DNA from: an uncultured Verrucomicrobiae bacterium | GTDB lineage: Bacteria; Chlamydiota; Chlamydiia; Chlamydiales; Rhabdochlamydiaceae | Direction: 5' to 3' | Assembly (NCBI GenBank): GCA_963731265.1 | Contig: CAVSUE010000001.1 | Coordinates: 864,997-928,996, forward strand | Length of the DNA: 64,000 bases | Shown: positions 19,562 through 54,762 of the stretch, piece after piece | Position numbering within the stretch: position 1 is the first letter of the stretch | Layout: each line of letters opens with the position of its first letter | Position numbers and translations under genes: made by a program | Notes under the pieces: generated by a model | Told to the model about the DNA's origin: nothing | What the model saw: the letters and a program-made list of their open reading frames with translations, nothing else | The model's database searches: none

Positions 19562-19802
19562 TTGTTGCATAAACCAAAAATTTAACCACCGAGCTCACCG
19601 AGAGCACCGAGATGAAATCGATCACAAGCGCTATCGCTATCCACGAGGCACAATTACTGTCATATCTTAAATTCGCTGGTTGTCAAGTAGGGTTACTGAT
19701 CAACTTTAACGTAAAGTTGTTAAAGAATGGGATCCGTAGAATAATAAATTAATCTCGGTGCTCTCGGTGAGCTCGGTGGTTTATTACCCATTTATGCAAC
19801 AA
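19562..19802 (+). mobile_element. Inverted-repeat-bounded element carrying a GxxExxY (PD-(D/E)XK-like) C-terminal fragment (19612-19752)
   Basis: Arms TTGTTGCATAAA..AACCACCGAGCTCACCGAGAGCACCGAGAT and their complement. The interior reads MKSI..IHEAQLLSYLKFAGCQVGLLINFNVKLLKNGIRRIIN*. Confidence 0.78.
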
Positions 19803-19842
19803 AGCCGTTCAACTCCCGAAAAAAAAGCCAAAGGCTAGCCTT

Positions 19843-50334: not shown

Positions 50335-50595
50335 ATTTCTCCTTAAGTGGTTTTTTTTTGGGATTGAGCATAGCAAAGAATCTTCATTAAAGCAATCTTA
50401 ACAAAACTCAATTTTTTGAGGTTTTGACAAATAAAAGGATTAATTAACTGGTTCGTGTAGAGAGTGATCGAAGATTTTAATGCTCGTTTGAAGACTCGTG
50501 CGTCGTTCCTCAGCGTAATTTTACTCATTTACACATTATAAATAAATACGAGCACTTATTTTAAAAGGGAATGACCAGGAAAGGTTGACCCCCTA

Positions 50596-51208
50596 GAGGT
50601 TGCATAGGCTTTTATTCAACGCAGAGGCGCTAAGACGCAAAGGTAAATTCCGAGGCATACAATGTCTCAGAATTTACTTTCATTTTTTGGCGAAAATCAA
50701 GAGTTATAAACCATTTACTACTCGACAAACGCCATCCTTGAGCTGTTTTTTGCCAAAGTTGAGAAGAAGACCTAATTTCATGCCACTGAGGCGCAGATAG
50801 GTTAATAATTGGGATTGATATACGGAATGATCAAGTTCAGTTGCTTTGACCTCAATGATTATTTTGTTTTCGACCAGAATATCTAAAAAGAGAAGATCCC
50901 TAATGGTTTTGTATTTCACCGGAATAGCCAATTGCCTCTGGCAACGCAATTCTAACAAAGACAATTCATAGACCCGGCCCCCTAAGGCACGGTGAACCTC
51001 AATGGCTGCTCCAATGATTTTTCGCGTAAGCTCAGCTTCCATGGTCCTAAAACTATACAGAAAAAATATTTTTGCAAAATGACATTTGGTGCTCTCTTTT
51101 CTTCCTTCCAAGTGAAGGTAAATTCCGCGGCATTCTAATGCCTCGGAATTTACCTTTGCGGCTCGGCGGCTTTGCGCCTCTGCGTTGCATAAAACCCTAT
51201 GCAACCTC
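50596..51208 (-). mobile_element. Inverted-repeat-bounded GxxExxY cassette
   Basis: Arms of ~62-70 bp, GAGGTTGCATAGG..CAACGCAGAGGCGC..GCAAAGGTAAATTCCGAGGCAT and their complement at 51138-51208. Confidence 0.75.
50704..51042 (-). pseudogene. Degenerate GxxExxY (PD-(D/E)XK-like) protein
   Basis: LTRKIIGAAIEVHRALG; DILVENKIIIEVKA; QLLTYLRLSGMKLGLLLNF. The GxxExxY motif itself is disrupted by short in-frame deletions. Confidence 0.75.
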
Positions 51209-51261
51209 AAGGTGGTAATGGGATGTGTAAACTTGCCACGAGCCCGTGCCCGGCTTCTTTA

Positions 51262-54200
51262 TTAATAGCTCTTGGTCCACTTGAGGGAGAATTTGCCTTC
51301 TTCCTCGTCCTGGGTTTCGGCTTGGAAGACGAAGCCTTTGGGGAGTTCAACTTCGACGATGACTCGGCTGCTGGTCGCGCTTTGGGAGAGAGTGATCAGC
51401 AGGCCGCGGGTCAAGTATTTTCCGATTTGTACAGCGATCTCATCAGTGCCCGGCTGGGAAGAGATGTTAAGGCGGTCGACCCCGATGCTTTTACGGATGG
51501 TCTCGAGGACATCGGGCCCTGCCCCTCCTGAAAGGCTGACCAGGGTGCTGGCGAGCTGGACCGCTTCAGGATGGGAAATGTCGGAGATATCTTTGTTGAA
51601 CAGGATCAGGGCTAAGATCGAGCTTGTCGGTTTTTGCGGGTTGGATTGGAAGGTAAGTTGAGGGGAGTTCAGAGGGCCGCGCAGCATCGCCGTGATCGTC
51701 GCTTCAGGCAAAGTGAGCGTTCCGTTCAGGTTGAGATACCCTGAAGGGGTTGGTTTGTCATTGAAGACAATTTCTCCTTCGGTCAGCTTGAAGACTTTGC
51801 CGGAAAACTGGTATTCTCCTTTAATCAATTTTAAAGCTCCATTCGCAGCGATGTTGGCGTTATTGCCATACAGATGGACATGCCCTTCGAGTTCTGCATT
51901 CAAGCCGCGCCCTTCTACGAGGACTTTGTTATCAGCTGTCAATTCCAGATCCATCGAGAAGATAAAATGTCGTTCAGGTTTTGCTGCCCTGGAATAGAGA
52001 TAGGGAGGACGATTGACATAAGTGAAAGGCATGGTCGGAATTTCGTAAGGGAGCCTTTCGGTAATATGAATTTTCGCCTCTTCGATCAACAAATTGCCTT
52101 GCGCAAGCATCTGTGTCGTGTCGCCCGTCAAGTAAAGAGGTCCCGTGAGATTGGAATCGATCATATCAAACCCTAAAGCGTGCAAGTTCTGCAATTCGGC
52201 CTCAAAGGCGTAAGGAAAAAATTCCTGGGGTTTGAGCAGGATTTGGCCTTGGCCAGTCATCGACCCCTTTTTATCATCATCCGCCTTGATCTGGATGAGA
52301 TGGATGGTGTCATTTTGCGCTTCGCAGTCTGCTTGGATATTCTTGAGAGAGATTCCCGTAAAATAGTTCTCATAGGTGCCGTTTTGCCATTCTAGTTTTC
52401 CTCTAAGAGAAGGAGCTGCGAGGGTATTGGAGAGAAAAAGACGACAGGAGAGCAACCCCGAGAAGTAATTCGTGCCCAGATTGACGAAATCGAACAAGTC
52501 CTGCAATTTTCCTTCCGCGATGAGCTCTCCCGAAATGTTTTTTGTCTCATCAAAAGTCATGCGGAAGGGATAGAGCTGGTACTCGACGGGAAAAGAACCG
52601 GCGAAATCGAGAAATTGTTGGTCTGTTGCGTAAAGGTCGGTGTAGACCTGAAGGATGCGTTGATCGAGATGCGCTTGAACGACGCCTTTAGCCCGGAATG
52701 GATTTTTTCTTCCGAAGTGAAGAACGTCGACTTCCTCAAGGATTGTCTTTGACACCCCTTCGATATTTTCCGGCGTTGCGTCAAAGAATCCATCCGAGGA
52801 GGCAAAACCATGTAATTTAAAGTGAGGGCGGAAACAGCGGAAAACCTCCAACGGAAAATGTTTTAAATCCCATTTGCCGAAAGAACGGAGCGGAGTCGAT
52901 TCGAATGTCGCATAAAATCGACCATCGCCGATGAGAAAATCAAAAGGGCTTAATGTCACATAACTGGCGCCCCATTCCATCTCAGTAGGATATTTTAATG
53001 AAAAGGGAATGTCGGAAAGATCGCCAAATAACTGGGTGAGTTCCAAGGAAAATAAACTGTTTTCTTTTTTCCAAAATCCTTCAGCCGTGCAATGAAAGGG
53101 ATTTTCTATCTGTCCCTCTGTCTTTATCGTGAATGGCCAAATCCCCTCATCGGATTGTGTGGTAAAATGAAGTTCGTCCAGGTAGAAGCTGGGCGCATAA
53201 ATTTTTTCTGCGAGAATATCGACTTCCCCAGAGGGTGCATCGAAGAGGTTCTGGATTTTGGCGGCCACATTTAAATCTTCAAGAAAGTATTCGCGGAAAC
53301 GCAAATTTTTCCCGATGAGGAGGCAATGTGCATTTTGTTCGTTGTCTTCGGTGGAAAGGACGCATTCAGCGGCAAGTTTACCCCCGAGATTTTCGTTTCT
53401 GAAGAAAGATTCAAAAGATTCGAGATGGTTTGTATTTGCAAAAAGCGAGGATTGGCAAAGGCCCCGGGGCAAATCGTAGGTCAAATACCCATGGAGGGAG
53501 GCATCAGAAATTTTGAAGTTGAGATCGATGATGGAAAAGGATTGACCGGGGAAATATTCAAAGGCAAAAGCAACATGGAAGGGGAGGTCTGCCTGAGGAG
53601 AGGACAATTGGACTTCTCCTTCCCATTCCCTGTTTTCATAGCTCCCTTTGACCATCCCCTGGATGGTATTGGCGGCAAAAGAGTGGATGTGAAGTTCATG
53701 GGCTTCCAATGAGGCTTTGTATGTCCCTTCCTGGTAGACGCCTTTGCCATGCACGGATCCTTTTACCGGAATAGTAGGGAACTTTGCTAAATCGGGAAAA
53801 GAATATGCGAAAGCTATTTTGCTTTTTTCCAGATCGGCATTCAAATTCCCTTTTGCTTTGAGGTGGACGAGATCGCTCAGGAGGAGCAGTTTTTGCAGAT
53901 AGATTTCCTGACCGGACAAAACGGAAAACTCTGTTTTAAATTTCCAATCTCGATTTAAGAGGGGGACAGCTGGAAAATGAACATTGGCAAGCTCTCCTTT
54001 CCACGTGCCTTGAAGAGGGGAGCCTGTGCGCGGAAGATCGTAGAGAAGCTCTGACCATGTCATCCAGGAACCTTCTAAATCGAATTCGGAATCGATTTCA
54101 TTGAGATGGGCCTGAATTTTGGCCTCGACTAAATTTCTTAACTTATTGGCTGATAAGCGGAAATCCAAATAAGTCTTCTTGTTTTCCGGGGAAAAAAATG

Positions 54201-54762
54201 TGAGTTCCAACTTAAAGGTTTCTAAATCGCGGCGCAGGGCGATCTTTCCCGTTAATCCTGTACTCAGCGTGGAACCGGTTTGGATATTTTTTACCTCTAA
54301 GAAGGCGAGATTAAAGTGATCAATATCGATTTCGCAGGGTAGATCGATCCCTTCGATTTGTTTGCGCACCCACGCTTTGGCGCTGGCGAGATCTAAAGCA
54401 GGAGGTTGTTCCGAAGGAAAATAAGAATAAATGGCATGGCTCGCGCTCAAATAGTTGATGACGATTTTTCCTCGCAATAGGGGCAGGATCGCAATGCGCA
54501 GCCTGACATCGGACAATTTCAGCGAATCGCCTTTGTTGAAAGTAAAATCGGCTTGCTGAATTTCCCAAGAAAACGGAAGGCGTCCCGATAAATCAGCAAT
54601 AGAGGCCTGTGTTCCGGACTCGTTTAGATAAGCGACGATTTTTGCCTGGATTTGATCTTTGGCCCATTTTGTCTGCATCAGTGCGAACGCAGTGCAGAAG
54701 AAGAGGATGAGTCCAATGAAGATGTAGAGGACAGATTTGGTCAATTTATAAAATATAATCAT
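51262..54762 (-). CDS. tamB: Translocation/assembly module TamB (DUF490) family
   Basis: N-terminal TM, long beta-rich body, C-terminal GVDRLNI..IGKYLT..F..E. Confidence 0.85.
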   Translation of the reverse strand: MIIFYKLTKSVLYIFIGLILFFCTAFALMQTKWAKDQIQAKIVAYLNESGTQASIADLSGRLPFSWEIQQADFTFNKGDSLKLSDVRLRIAILPLLRGKIVINYLSASHAIYSYFPSEQPPALDLASAKAWVRKQIEGIDLPCEIDIDHFNLAFLEVKNIQTGSTLSTGLTGKIALRRDLETFKLELTFFSPENKKTYLDFRLSANKLRNLVEAKIQAHLNEIDSEFDLEGSWMTWSELLYDLPRTGSPLQGTWKGELANVHFPAVPLLNRDWKFKTEFSVLSGQEIYLQKLLLLSDLVHLKAKGNLNADLEKSKIAFAYSFPDLAKFPTIPVKGSVHGKGVYQEGTYKASLEAHELHIHSFAANTIQGMVKGSYENREWEGEVQLSSPQADLPFHVAFAFEYFPGQSFSIIDLNFKISDASLHGYLTYDLPRGLCQSSLFANTNHLESFESFFRNENLGGKLAAECVLSTEDNEQNAHCLLIGKNLRFREYFLEDLNVAAKIQNLFDAPSGEVDILAEKIYAPSFYLDELHFTTQSDEGIWPFTIKTEGQIENPFHCTAEGFWKKENSLFSLELTQLFGDLSDIPFSLKYPTEMEWGASYVTLSPFDFLIGDGRFYATFESTPLRSFGKWDLKHFPLEVFRCFRPHFKLHGFASSDGFFDATPENIEGVSKTILEEVDVLHFGRKNPFRAKGVVQAHLDQRILQVYTDLYATDQQFLDFAGSFPVEYQLYPFRMTFDETKNISGELIAEGKLQDLFDFVNLGTNYFSGLLSCRLFLSNTLAAPSLRGKLEWQNGTYENYFTGISLKNIQADCEAQNDTIHLIQIKADDDKKGSMTGQGQILLKPQEFFPYAFEAELQNLHALGFDMIDSNLTGPLYLTGDTTQMLAQGNLLIEEAKIHITERLPYEIPTMPFTYVNRPPYLYSRAAKPERHFIFSMDLELTADNKVLVEGRGLNAELEGHVHLYGNNANIAANGALKLIKGEYQFSGKVFKLTEGEIVFNDKPTPSGYLNLNGTLTLPEATITAMLRGPLNSPQLTFQSNPQKPTSSILALILFNKDISDISHPEAVQLASTLVSLSGGAGPDVLETIRKSIGVDRLNISSQPGTDEIAVQIGKYLTRGLLITLSQSATSSRVIVEVELPKGFVFQAETQDEEEGKFSLKWTKSY

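Follow-up and report, generated by a model that had tools for sequence, protein, structure and literature searches.

A GxxExxY-family nuclease gene between inverted arms beside tamB: a probable non-autonomous transposable cassette in decay

Among published systems, the nearest parallel to a nuclease that sits between hairpin repeats of its own is Ssn, whose small genes are flanked by hairpin-forming repeats (NTS/SRM) that the enzyme cuts and that also occur as gene-less copies elsewhere in the genome (PMC11893778). A different kind of precedent is provided by the mobile insertion cassettes, such as MIC231 with its IS231 ends (Chen 1999 and De Palmenaer 2004, as cited in PMC2266710). For the IS50 subgroup of insertion sequences, an end consensus and target duplications of 8-9 bp have been published (PMC2266710), and the target duplications of IS903B are 9 bp (PMC9769513). 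The GxxExxY proteins (PF13366, PDDEXK_3) form a very large prokaryotic family whose function is listed as unknown in a family survey (PMC3424549). Our literature search under these three names returned that survey and incidental mentions, with no paper on the repeat context of the genes or on a module of nuclease plus arms. The locus described here has a gene of this family enclosed by inverted, hairpin-forming arms, outside which lie the remnants of insertion-sequence terminal repeats.

The cassette between tamB and the translocator operon

The window, by which we mean the whole stretch of 64,000 nucleotides that was analyzed, corresponds to C1:864997-928996 of a genome (G000) of 2.34 Mb in two contigs with 46% G+C. 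Judging by gene content, this is probably an environmental chlamydia-like bacterium. The cassette and its neighbors comprise the following features.

Downstream operon, minus strand: SycD/LcrH type III chaperone gene (TIGR02552, 111 bits, over the cut-off)
Downstream operon, minus strand: hydrophobic translocator candidates
Downstream, on the other side of the cassette from tamB, minus strand: gene of 222 aa
50575..50598, no strand: left outer segment, GGAAAGGTTGACCCCCTAGAG, a degenerate remnant of an outer terminal repeat with an uncertain terminus
50599..50620, no strand: left terminal hairpin, GTTGCATA-GGCTTT-TATTCAAC, with one mismatch
50619..50642, no strand: left array of three 8-nt units, ACGCAGAG GCGCTAAG ACGCAAAG, located by a genome-wide regex scan
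50640..50680, no strand: left inner hairpin, AAGGTAAATTCCGAGGCAT / ATGTCTCAGAATTTACTTT
50704..51042 (50707-51042 without the stop), minus strand: GxxExxY-family gene, 112 aa plus stop (PF13366, PD-(D/E)XK)
51043..51114, minus strand: gene leader (putative promoter), which contains a TATAGT box and has AGGA 7 nt ahead of the ATG
51115..51156, no strand: right inner hairpin, with arms of 20 nt that are 95% complementary
51154..51185, no strand: right array of four 8-nt units, read on the minus strand as ACGCAGAG GCGCAAAG CCGCCGAG CCGCAAAG
51184..51205, no strand: right terminal hairpin, GTTGCATA-AAACCC-TATGCAAC
51206..51240, no strand: right outer segment, read on the minus strand as CGTGGCAAGTTTACACATCCCATTACCACCTTGAGG, a degenerate remnant of an IS50-type outer terminal repeat
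51262-54762, minus strand: tamB (PF04357, 168 bits), upstream of the cassette
Beyond tamB, minus strand: TamA/BamA-like gene

The cassette gene, tamB and the translocator operon all have the same orientation, and a promoter-like stretch downstream of the cassette (TTAAAA-18-TATAAT at 50564-50535) is conserved in the relative G002. In G002 and in G003, the closest congener, in which TamB is 93% identical, tamB is followed by 130-235 bp and then by a homolog of the 222-aa gene; the whole cassette appears as a gap in the alignment with both loci. A different gene adjoins tamB in G001. When the cassette DNA was searched against 30 relatives, matches were found in 15, none of them near their tamB, and the cassette-like matches in 18 congeners likewise lie away from this gene. 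The cassette is an insertion in this lineage only, between the stop codon of tamB and the putative promoter of the translocator operon.

The two arms (50588-50685 and the reverse complement of 51110-51216) agree at 87 of the 107 columns of a gapped alignment that contains one 8-nt and one 1-nt indel; this corresponds to 87/98 ungapped positions, or 81% identity over all 107 columns. The alignment score is 114, as compared with 15 +/- 2.2 (maximum 23) for 300 shuffles. From the outside to the inside, each arm consists of a small GTTGCATA hairpin, 8-nt CGCARAG units in an array (three in the left arm, four in the right) and an inner hairpin of 17-20 bp (50640-50680 and 51115-51156). In single-stranded form, each arm folds into strong local hairpins (for the right arm, z = -5.9 and -6.3), and the stem of the terminal hairpin is kept by paired changes in related copies, being GTTGAAT/ATTCAAC in G018 and GTTGGA/TCCAAC in G003. 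A 666-nt transcript would fold into a single long stem whose loop contains the gene (-231 kcal/mol, z = -10, none of 20 shuffles as good).

The gene at 50707-51042 on the minus strand is the sole gene between the arms, and no transposase gene is present inside the cassette. Profile scans place its product in the family, with 86.3 bits for TIGR04256 (cut-off 35) and 82.7 bits for PF13366 (cut-off 22); a Pfam scan found no domain other than PF13366, and a sequence search of the PDB with an intact homolog returned no relative. The reading frame is open. An alignment with 13 intact relatives, all of which retain the GxxExxY motif, shows that this motif is missing from the window protein through an in-frame deletion of 11 codons that took out PGLLExxYExx, and that a further two residues have been deleted in frame. 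The PD-(D/E)XK core is kept (D54, E64-x-K66 and Q78..Y82); D54, E64, K66 and Y82 occupy invariant columns, and the column of Q78 is at least 90% conserved. No intact GxxExxY gene is present anywhere in G000. A public-metagenome contig of 151 nt (run X2) matches the cassette gene exactly over window positions 50829-50947 after 32 unrelated letters; at so low a depth, it might reflect a variant junction from a related strain. In the public sequencing runs the organism was present at very low depth, and none of the reads crossed an empty or filled site.

The outer repeats of the window copy are degenerate remnants that are weakly recognizable by homology. The left segment, GGAAAGGTTGACCCCCTAGAG, is homologous to the outer flank of the copy at C1:969.7 kb and of its ortholog in G003 (GGTTTACGCCTAGAG), as well as to the IS50-type terminal inverted repeat of the G018 homologs described below. 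The right segment, CGTGGCAAGTTTACACATCCCATTACCACCTTGAGG, is homologous to GGCACGTTTACGCATCCTAAGTC (C1:966.36 kb), to GGCATGTTTACGCTTCC (C1:370.88 kb) and to CTGATCTTTACCCATAAGTC of G018. Direct reading under several placements of the ends at 50.58/51.24 kb gave no target duplication, the candidate 9-mers matching at 3-4 of 9 positions. The window copy is probably inactive. It has lost the motif, its arms agree at 87 of 98 ungapped positions, its outer ends are eroded and it retains no duplication.

Most of what an earlier note on this DNA had described from the letters agrees with these results. The position it gave, between a translocator operon and tamB, is confirmed by the PF04357 and SycD/LcrH profile matches. 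The imperfect inverted repeats, put at ~62-70 bp, are real and in fact longer (50588-50685 / 51110-51216); the outer hairpin with an AAACCC loop was found on the right at 51184-51205, its left copy at 50599-50620 having one mismatch. The computed folding bore out the proposed transcript structure, in which the gene occupies the loop of a long stem, and calling the gene degenerate was right in the specific sense that the motif is deleted in frame, with an open frame and the core residues retained. Both comparisons that the note had proposed gave the outcome it looked for: the site is empty in G003 and G002, with no cassette-like DNA near tamB in the other congeners, and inverted repeats tightly flank 8/12 intact GxxExxY genes in relatives.

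Related cassettes and their terminal repeats

Two homologs of the window cassette occur at other loci in the congener G018 (L039/L026 at C9:95649-97577 and L057 at C14:3739-4436). They are ~85% identical to it over the leader (51043..51114) and arm, and are internally deleted, with most of the gene lost. Inverted ends that begin CTGATCTTTACCCATAAGTC lie ~30 nt outside their terminal hairpin. The C9 copy is bounded by a perfect 9-bp duplication, CCCTAACAG, and the second copy by a duplication that matches at 7 of 9 positions (GGCAGGTCC / GGCCGGGCC). The CTGATCTTTACCCATAAGTC end fits all seven of the seven conserved positions in the published consensus of the IS50 subgroup. The same end also bounds a 155-bp MITE in G016 and, in G001, an element with an internal deletion, whose remnants match the DNA-binding and dimerization domains of Tn5. 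The cassette copies of G000 retain a degenerate outer segment (GGCAYGTTTACRCWTCC). At one shared point, both G018 homologs contain inserted elements with CTAGTACATGACG ends, the insert being a ~170-bp MITE in one and ~1.4 kb with more than one such element in the other.

Two copies of a Tn5-like insertion sequence, 99% identical and with 470-aa frames, are present in G000 (C1:935243-936767 and C1:1689170-1690694). Their ends, CATAGTGTTATACACAAC, fit the IS50-subgroup consensus, yet differ from the outer ends of the cassette family. These intact elements were considered as the cognate mobilizer and set aside since the ends differ, matching at 10 of 20 positions. No cognate transposase was found in G000.

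A second, sister cassette lies within the window at 19.6 kb.

19558-19806 (249 bp; 19549..19815 with the duplications), plus strand: second cassette, with ends GATCTTGTTGCATAAACC and, on the other strand, GGCTTTGTTGCATAAATG

Each of its arms contains three 9-nt CACCGAG units, and all that it retains of a GxxExxY gene is the final 47 codons. A perfect 9-bp duplication, GTTCAACTC (19549-19557 and 19807-19815), flanks the cassette, and a 100% identical copy at C1:1807084-1807332 (C1:1807075-1807341 with the duplications) has a perfect 9-bp duplication of its own, TATTACATA. The right end of the second cassette matches the right end of IS903B at 16 of 18 positions, the IS903B ends having been read from an annotated plasmid as GGTTTTGTTGAATAAATC and GGCTTTGTTGAATAAATC. 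A third copy of the 55-nt end of this cassette (C1:1171967-1172023) is found after the stop of a remnant gene for an IS903-like transposase. This is the sole IS903-like transposase in G000; it is N-terminally truncated, its domains are DDE_Tnp_1 and DDE_Tnp_1_5, and its identity to the IS903B transposase is 38%. The C-terminal part of an IS605-type TnpB-like ORF with a CxxC...CxxC zinc finger (C1:1170301-1171173) ends 6 bp before the truncated frame and probably caused the truncation. A joined-flank search of 20 relatives found no empty site for the 19.6-kb cassette, the region being specific to G000. Just upstream of this cassette, at 17281-18834, is a 517-aa ORF rich in YD/RHS-type repeats. 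The left terminal hairpin of the window cassette contains the GTTGCATA core that is common to the IS903-type ends of the second cassette. The idea that the GTTGCATA hairpin is a relic of an IS903-type end was not adopted and stays a suggestion, the 8-mer alone being common to the ends of the second cassette and of the G105 elements described next.

In G105, which belongs to another family of the same order, three near-identical copies of an element could be aligned over ~1,565 bp. The order of its parts is IS903-type terminal inverted repeat, arm, intact GxxExxY gene (135 aa), transposase gene (314 aa), arm and terminal inverted repeat, so that the transposase gene is also enclosed by the arms. 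Perfect 9-bp duplications, ACTATCGAT and ACTAAGCAA, flank two of the three aligned copies. The transposase has 14 matches in G105 and 22 in G127; autonomous IS903-GxxExxY elements exist in the former genome and probably also in the latter. Copies of the window cassette's family and of its sister family are thus seen with IS50- or IS903-type terminal repeats and 9-bp duplications, and such cassettes transpose without a working nuclease gene.

G028 contains a 1.4-kb IS5-family element (L072/L073, on C15 and C44) with DUF4096 and DDE_Tnp_1 domains and CTAAGAGCCTGTTCAGAAT ends. A GxxExxY gene bracketed by arms of CACAGAG units lies inside the ends of this element. There are 67 GxxExxY matches and 53 DDE_Tnp_1 matches in this genome, many of them side by side by their coordinates, and at many sites open frames of DDE_Tnp_1 type are located ~100 nt from GxxExxY genes or fragments. 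Judged from the match list alone, most of the G028 copies appear to hold a C-terminal gene fragment only. An intact protein of G028 that is 65% identical to the window protein has arms of the same unit type as the window cassette, and one G028 cassette with this unit type is associated with an 8-bp direct repeat and has no visible shell. Three shells, of the IS903 group, the IS50 group and an IS5/IS427-like group, are represented within one bacterial order.

Among the 12 intact GxxExxY genes that were fetched from relatives, eight have tight flanking inverted repeats, 30-110 nt long and composed of short units. No arms accompany the closest intact proteins (L028 of G002 and L029 of G012). A genome-wide regex scan found unit arrays at only four loci in G000, namely the window cassette and C1:370.6 kb, 966.4 kb and 969.7 kb. 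The first of these other loci (C1:370620-370735) is a gene-less foldback of the same arm family, with units and a collapsed inner hairpin, and is followed by several unrelated GC-rich palindromes. A left-type end at C1:966384-966417 and a right-type end at 969647-969755 lie 3.2 kb apart, around ORFs of 725 and 123 aa; they may have captured cargo between them or be half-elements unrelated to each other. An ortholog of the right-type end at 969.7 kb is present in G003, and further copies of the cassette family are found in G003 and G018. Short gene-less foldbacks of ACGCAAAG-type units occur in G005, G010 and G012 in two arrangements. No terminal repeats or duplications were seen around them, so DDE shells may not account for all of the spread. 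Two foldbacks of G005 (L043 and L047) have the opposite arrangement, with unit arrays running outward from a GTTGAA...TTCAAC tip, which follows the sequence logic of the window cassette's terminal hairpin.

Explanations for the spread of the nuclease-plus-arms module

It is probable, though well short of certain, that the stretch of ~50578-51240 represents a non-autonomous transposable cassette in an old and decaying copy, which carries the nuclease module as a passenger or accessory and was moved by an IS transposase in trans. The core of such a cassette would be the small PD-(D/E)XK gene of the GxxExxY family with its own leader. Around it would lie inverted arms of ~100 nt, each with a hairpin, an 8-nt CGCARAG array and a second hairpin with the GTTGCATA core, and the outermost layer would correspond to the remnants of insertion-sequence terminal repeats. 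By comparison with the homologs, the window copy would have been moved by a DDE transposase supplied in trans, in the style of a mobile insertion cassette, and would have decayed after its arrival, the nuclease-plus-arms module being a rider or accessory of the transposon and not its engine. By analogy with the Ssn nucleases and their flanking repeats, we would guess that the arms are sites bound or cut by the nuclease. The IS-type ends, the 9-bp duplications and the full element of G105 support the mobile-element reading. They also make the passenger the best fitting of the roles that the earlier note had offered for the gene, because cassettes with such ends and duplications have moved without an intact gene. 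The proposal of an undescribed mobile element holds insofar as this is a mobile, lineage-specific repeat family, but is not supported for an undescribed mechanism of its own, in view of the IS50- and IS903-type ends and the 9-bp duplications. A role of the nuclease as the mobilizing or homing enzyme found no support, since the well-preserved copies are IS-bounded and the 47-codon cassette has transposed in G000.

That the GxxExxY nuclease itself mobilizes or homes a new minimal element by recognizing the arm arrays or hairpins, with the IS shells as secondary captures, is improbable on the evidence at hand. All of the clean duplications are 9 bp long and lie outside IS50- or IS903-type ends, the movement of the 47-codon cassette took place in a genome with no intact GxxExxY gene, and most of the G028 copies appear, from the match list alone, to be gene fragments only. 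In favor of the nuclease, the arms always immediately enclose the gene, whichever of the three IS shells is involved, and they are tight at 8 of 12 intact genes in relatives; those of G105, however, take in the transposase gene too. Other points in its favor are the gene-less foldbacks without any IS ends, the stem of the terminal hairpin, kept through paired changes in three species, and possibly the 8-bp repeat beside the shell-less G028 cassette. A partnership of the Ssn/NTS type, in which the enzyme cuts or binds single-stranded or hairpin repeats of the arms and transposons merely spread the module, is compatible with the cassette reading and has a low, although not negligible, probability. 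Such a partnership might influence recombination, DNA uptake or the transposition chemistry of the carrier, for instance as a TnsA-like second-strand nuclease. Like the repeats of Ssn (PMC11893778), the window arms form strong local hairpins as single strands and gene-less arm copies occur in several congeners; in G105 and in the second cassette the arms adjoin the transposon ends. Against this analogy, the fold is PD-(D/E)XK and not GIY-YIG, the repeat copy number in G000 is low (four loci), and PF13366 is a family whose function is listed as unknown (PMC3424549) and for which the PDB search found no relative by sequence. By analogy with the Ssn nucleases and their flanking repeats, we would guess that the arms are sites bound or cut by the nuclease.

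An action of the arms at the RNA level only, with the stem processed like the intervening sequences of 23S rRNA or serving to insulate or stabilize a transcript, and with no mobile DNA involved, is very improbable. The long stem of the 666-nt transcript (z = -10, 0/20 shuffles as good) and the common orientation of the gene with tamB and the translocator operon agree with it, but such folding is general to long inverted repeats, and the site is polymorphic for presence or absence of the cassette. The target duplications of homologous cassettes elsewhere speak against this as the sole explanation, and no rRNA context is apparent in the window or in 20 related loci. A 23S rRNA intervening sequence was tried as a candidate; Rfam scans found no family in the window and matched tRNA alone among the 20 related loci, and the idea was therefore dropped.

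Movement of these elements is evidenced by the clean 9-bp duplications, by identical copies at different sites and by the 1,565-bp autonomous element. It is explained by ordinary DDE transposases, which weakens the case for a new transposition mechanism. The window copy of the cassette is itself an ordinary, eroded and harmless insertion, with the promoter-like site of the type III translocator operon lying downstream of it; the wider interest is in the layered design and the clean duplications, the mechanism of spread being conventional. More speculatively, and with a probability that we rate as low, the GxxExxY gene and the unit-array arms could form a self-contained accessory module that has repeatedly settled just inside the ends of unrelated DDE transposons and acts on them. 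Such a module could supply a second-strand nuclease comparable to TnsA, its position set by the subterminal arrays; alternatively, it could be a selfish rider directed at transposon termini. If so, this would be the first role for the large PF13366 family and a new kind of transposon partner. The layered elements offer a compact, testable system for the roles of nuclease and arms toward the transposon.

Comparison with known systems

The shells themselves have familiar counterparts. Those of the IS903 group (IS5 family) resemble the known elements in their ends (16/18 to the right end of IS903B), 9-bp duplications and a transposase homolog 38% identical to that of IS903B, and those of the IS50/Tn5 subgroup (IS4 family) in the seven of seven conserved end positions, 9-bp duplications and Tn5 DNA-binding and dimerization domains. 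Classical IS903 and IS50 have neither a nuclease gene nor subterminal unit arrays, whereas here arrays and a PD-(D/E)XK gene are located just inside the ends. REP/REPIN-RAYT systems share palindromic repeats with or without an enclosed gene and a copy number that varies among relatives; they differ in that no Y1/HUH transposase is involved here and in that the 9-bp duplications and DDE-type ends of the present elements are absent from REPINs. In Tn7, TnsA is a PD-(D/E)XK nuclease that works with a DDE transposase. The likeness is one of architecture, a nuclease with a restriction-enzyme fold and a DDE transposase being combined in one element in G105 and G028. Unlike in Tn7, the elements here proliferate with truncated nuclease genes, which indicates that the nuclease is not required in cis.

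Ssn with its NTS/SRM repeats is similar in having a small nuclease gene between hairpin-forming repeats and gene-less repeat copies elsewhere (PMC11893778). Its nuclease is of the GIY-YIG type (cd10448), whereas the Pfam scan found PF13366 only in the window gene. Cutting of the repeats has been demonstrated for Ssn (PMC11893778); a corresponding action of the PF13366 nuclease on its arms is hypothetical. The arms described here are, in addition, arrays of 8-9-nt units with hairpins that travel inside transposon ends. Mobile insertion cassettes and MITEs have in common with the present cassettes the lack of a transposase of their own, a passenger gene, autonomous relatives elsewhere and, in the well-preserved copies, terminal repeats of a transposase-encoding IS and a duplication of the length typical of that IS. 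They differ in that the window copy is too eroded for a visible duplication and has no cognate transposase identified in G000, and in that the passenger is here always the same module, a nuclease with inverted arms, carried in three IS shells.
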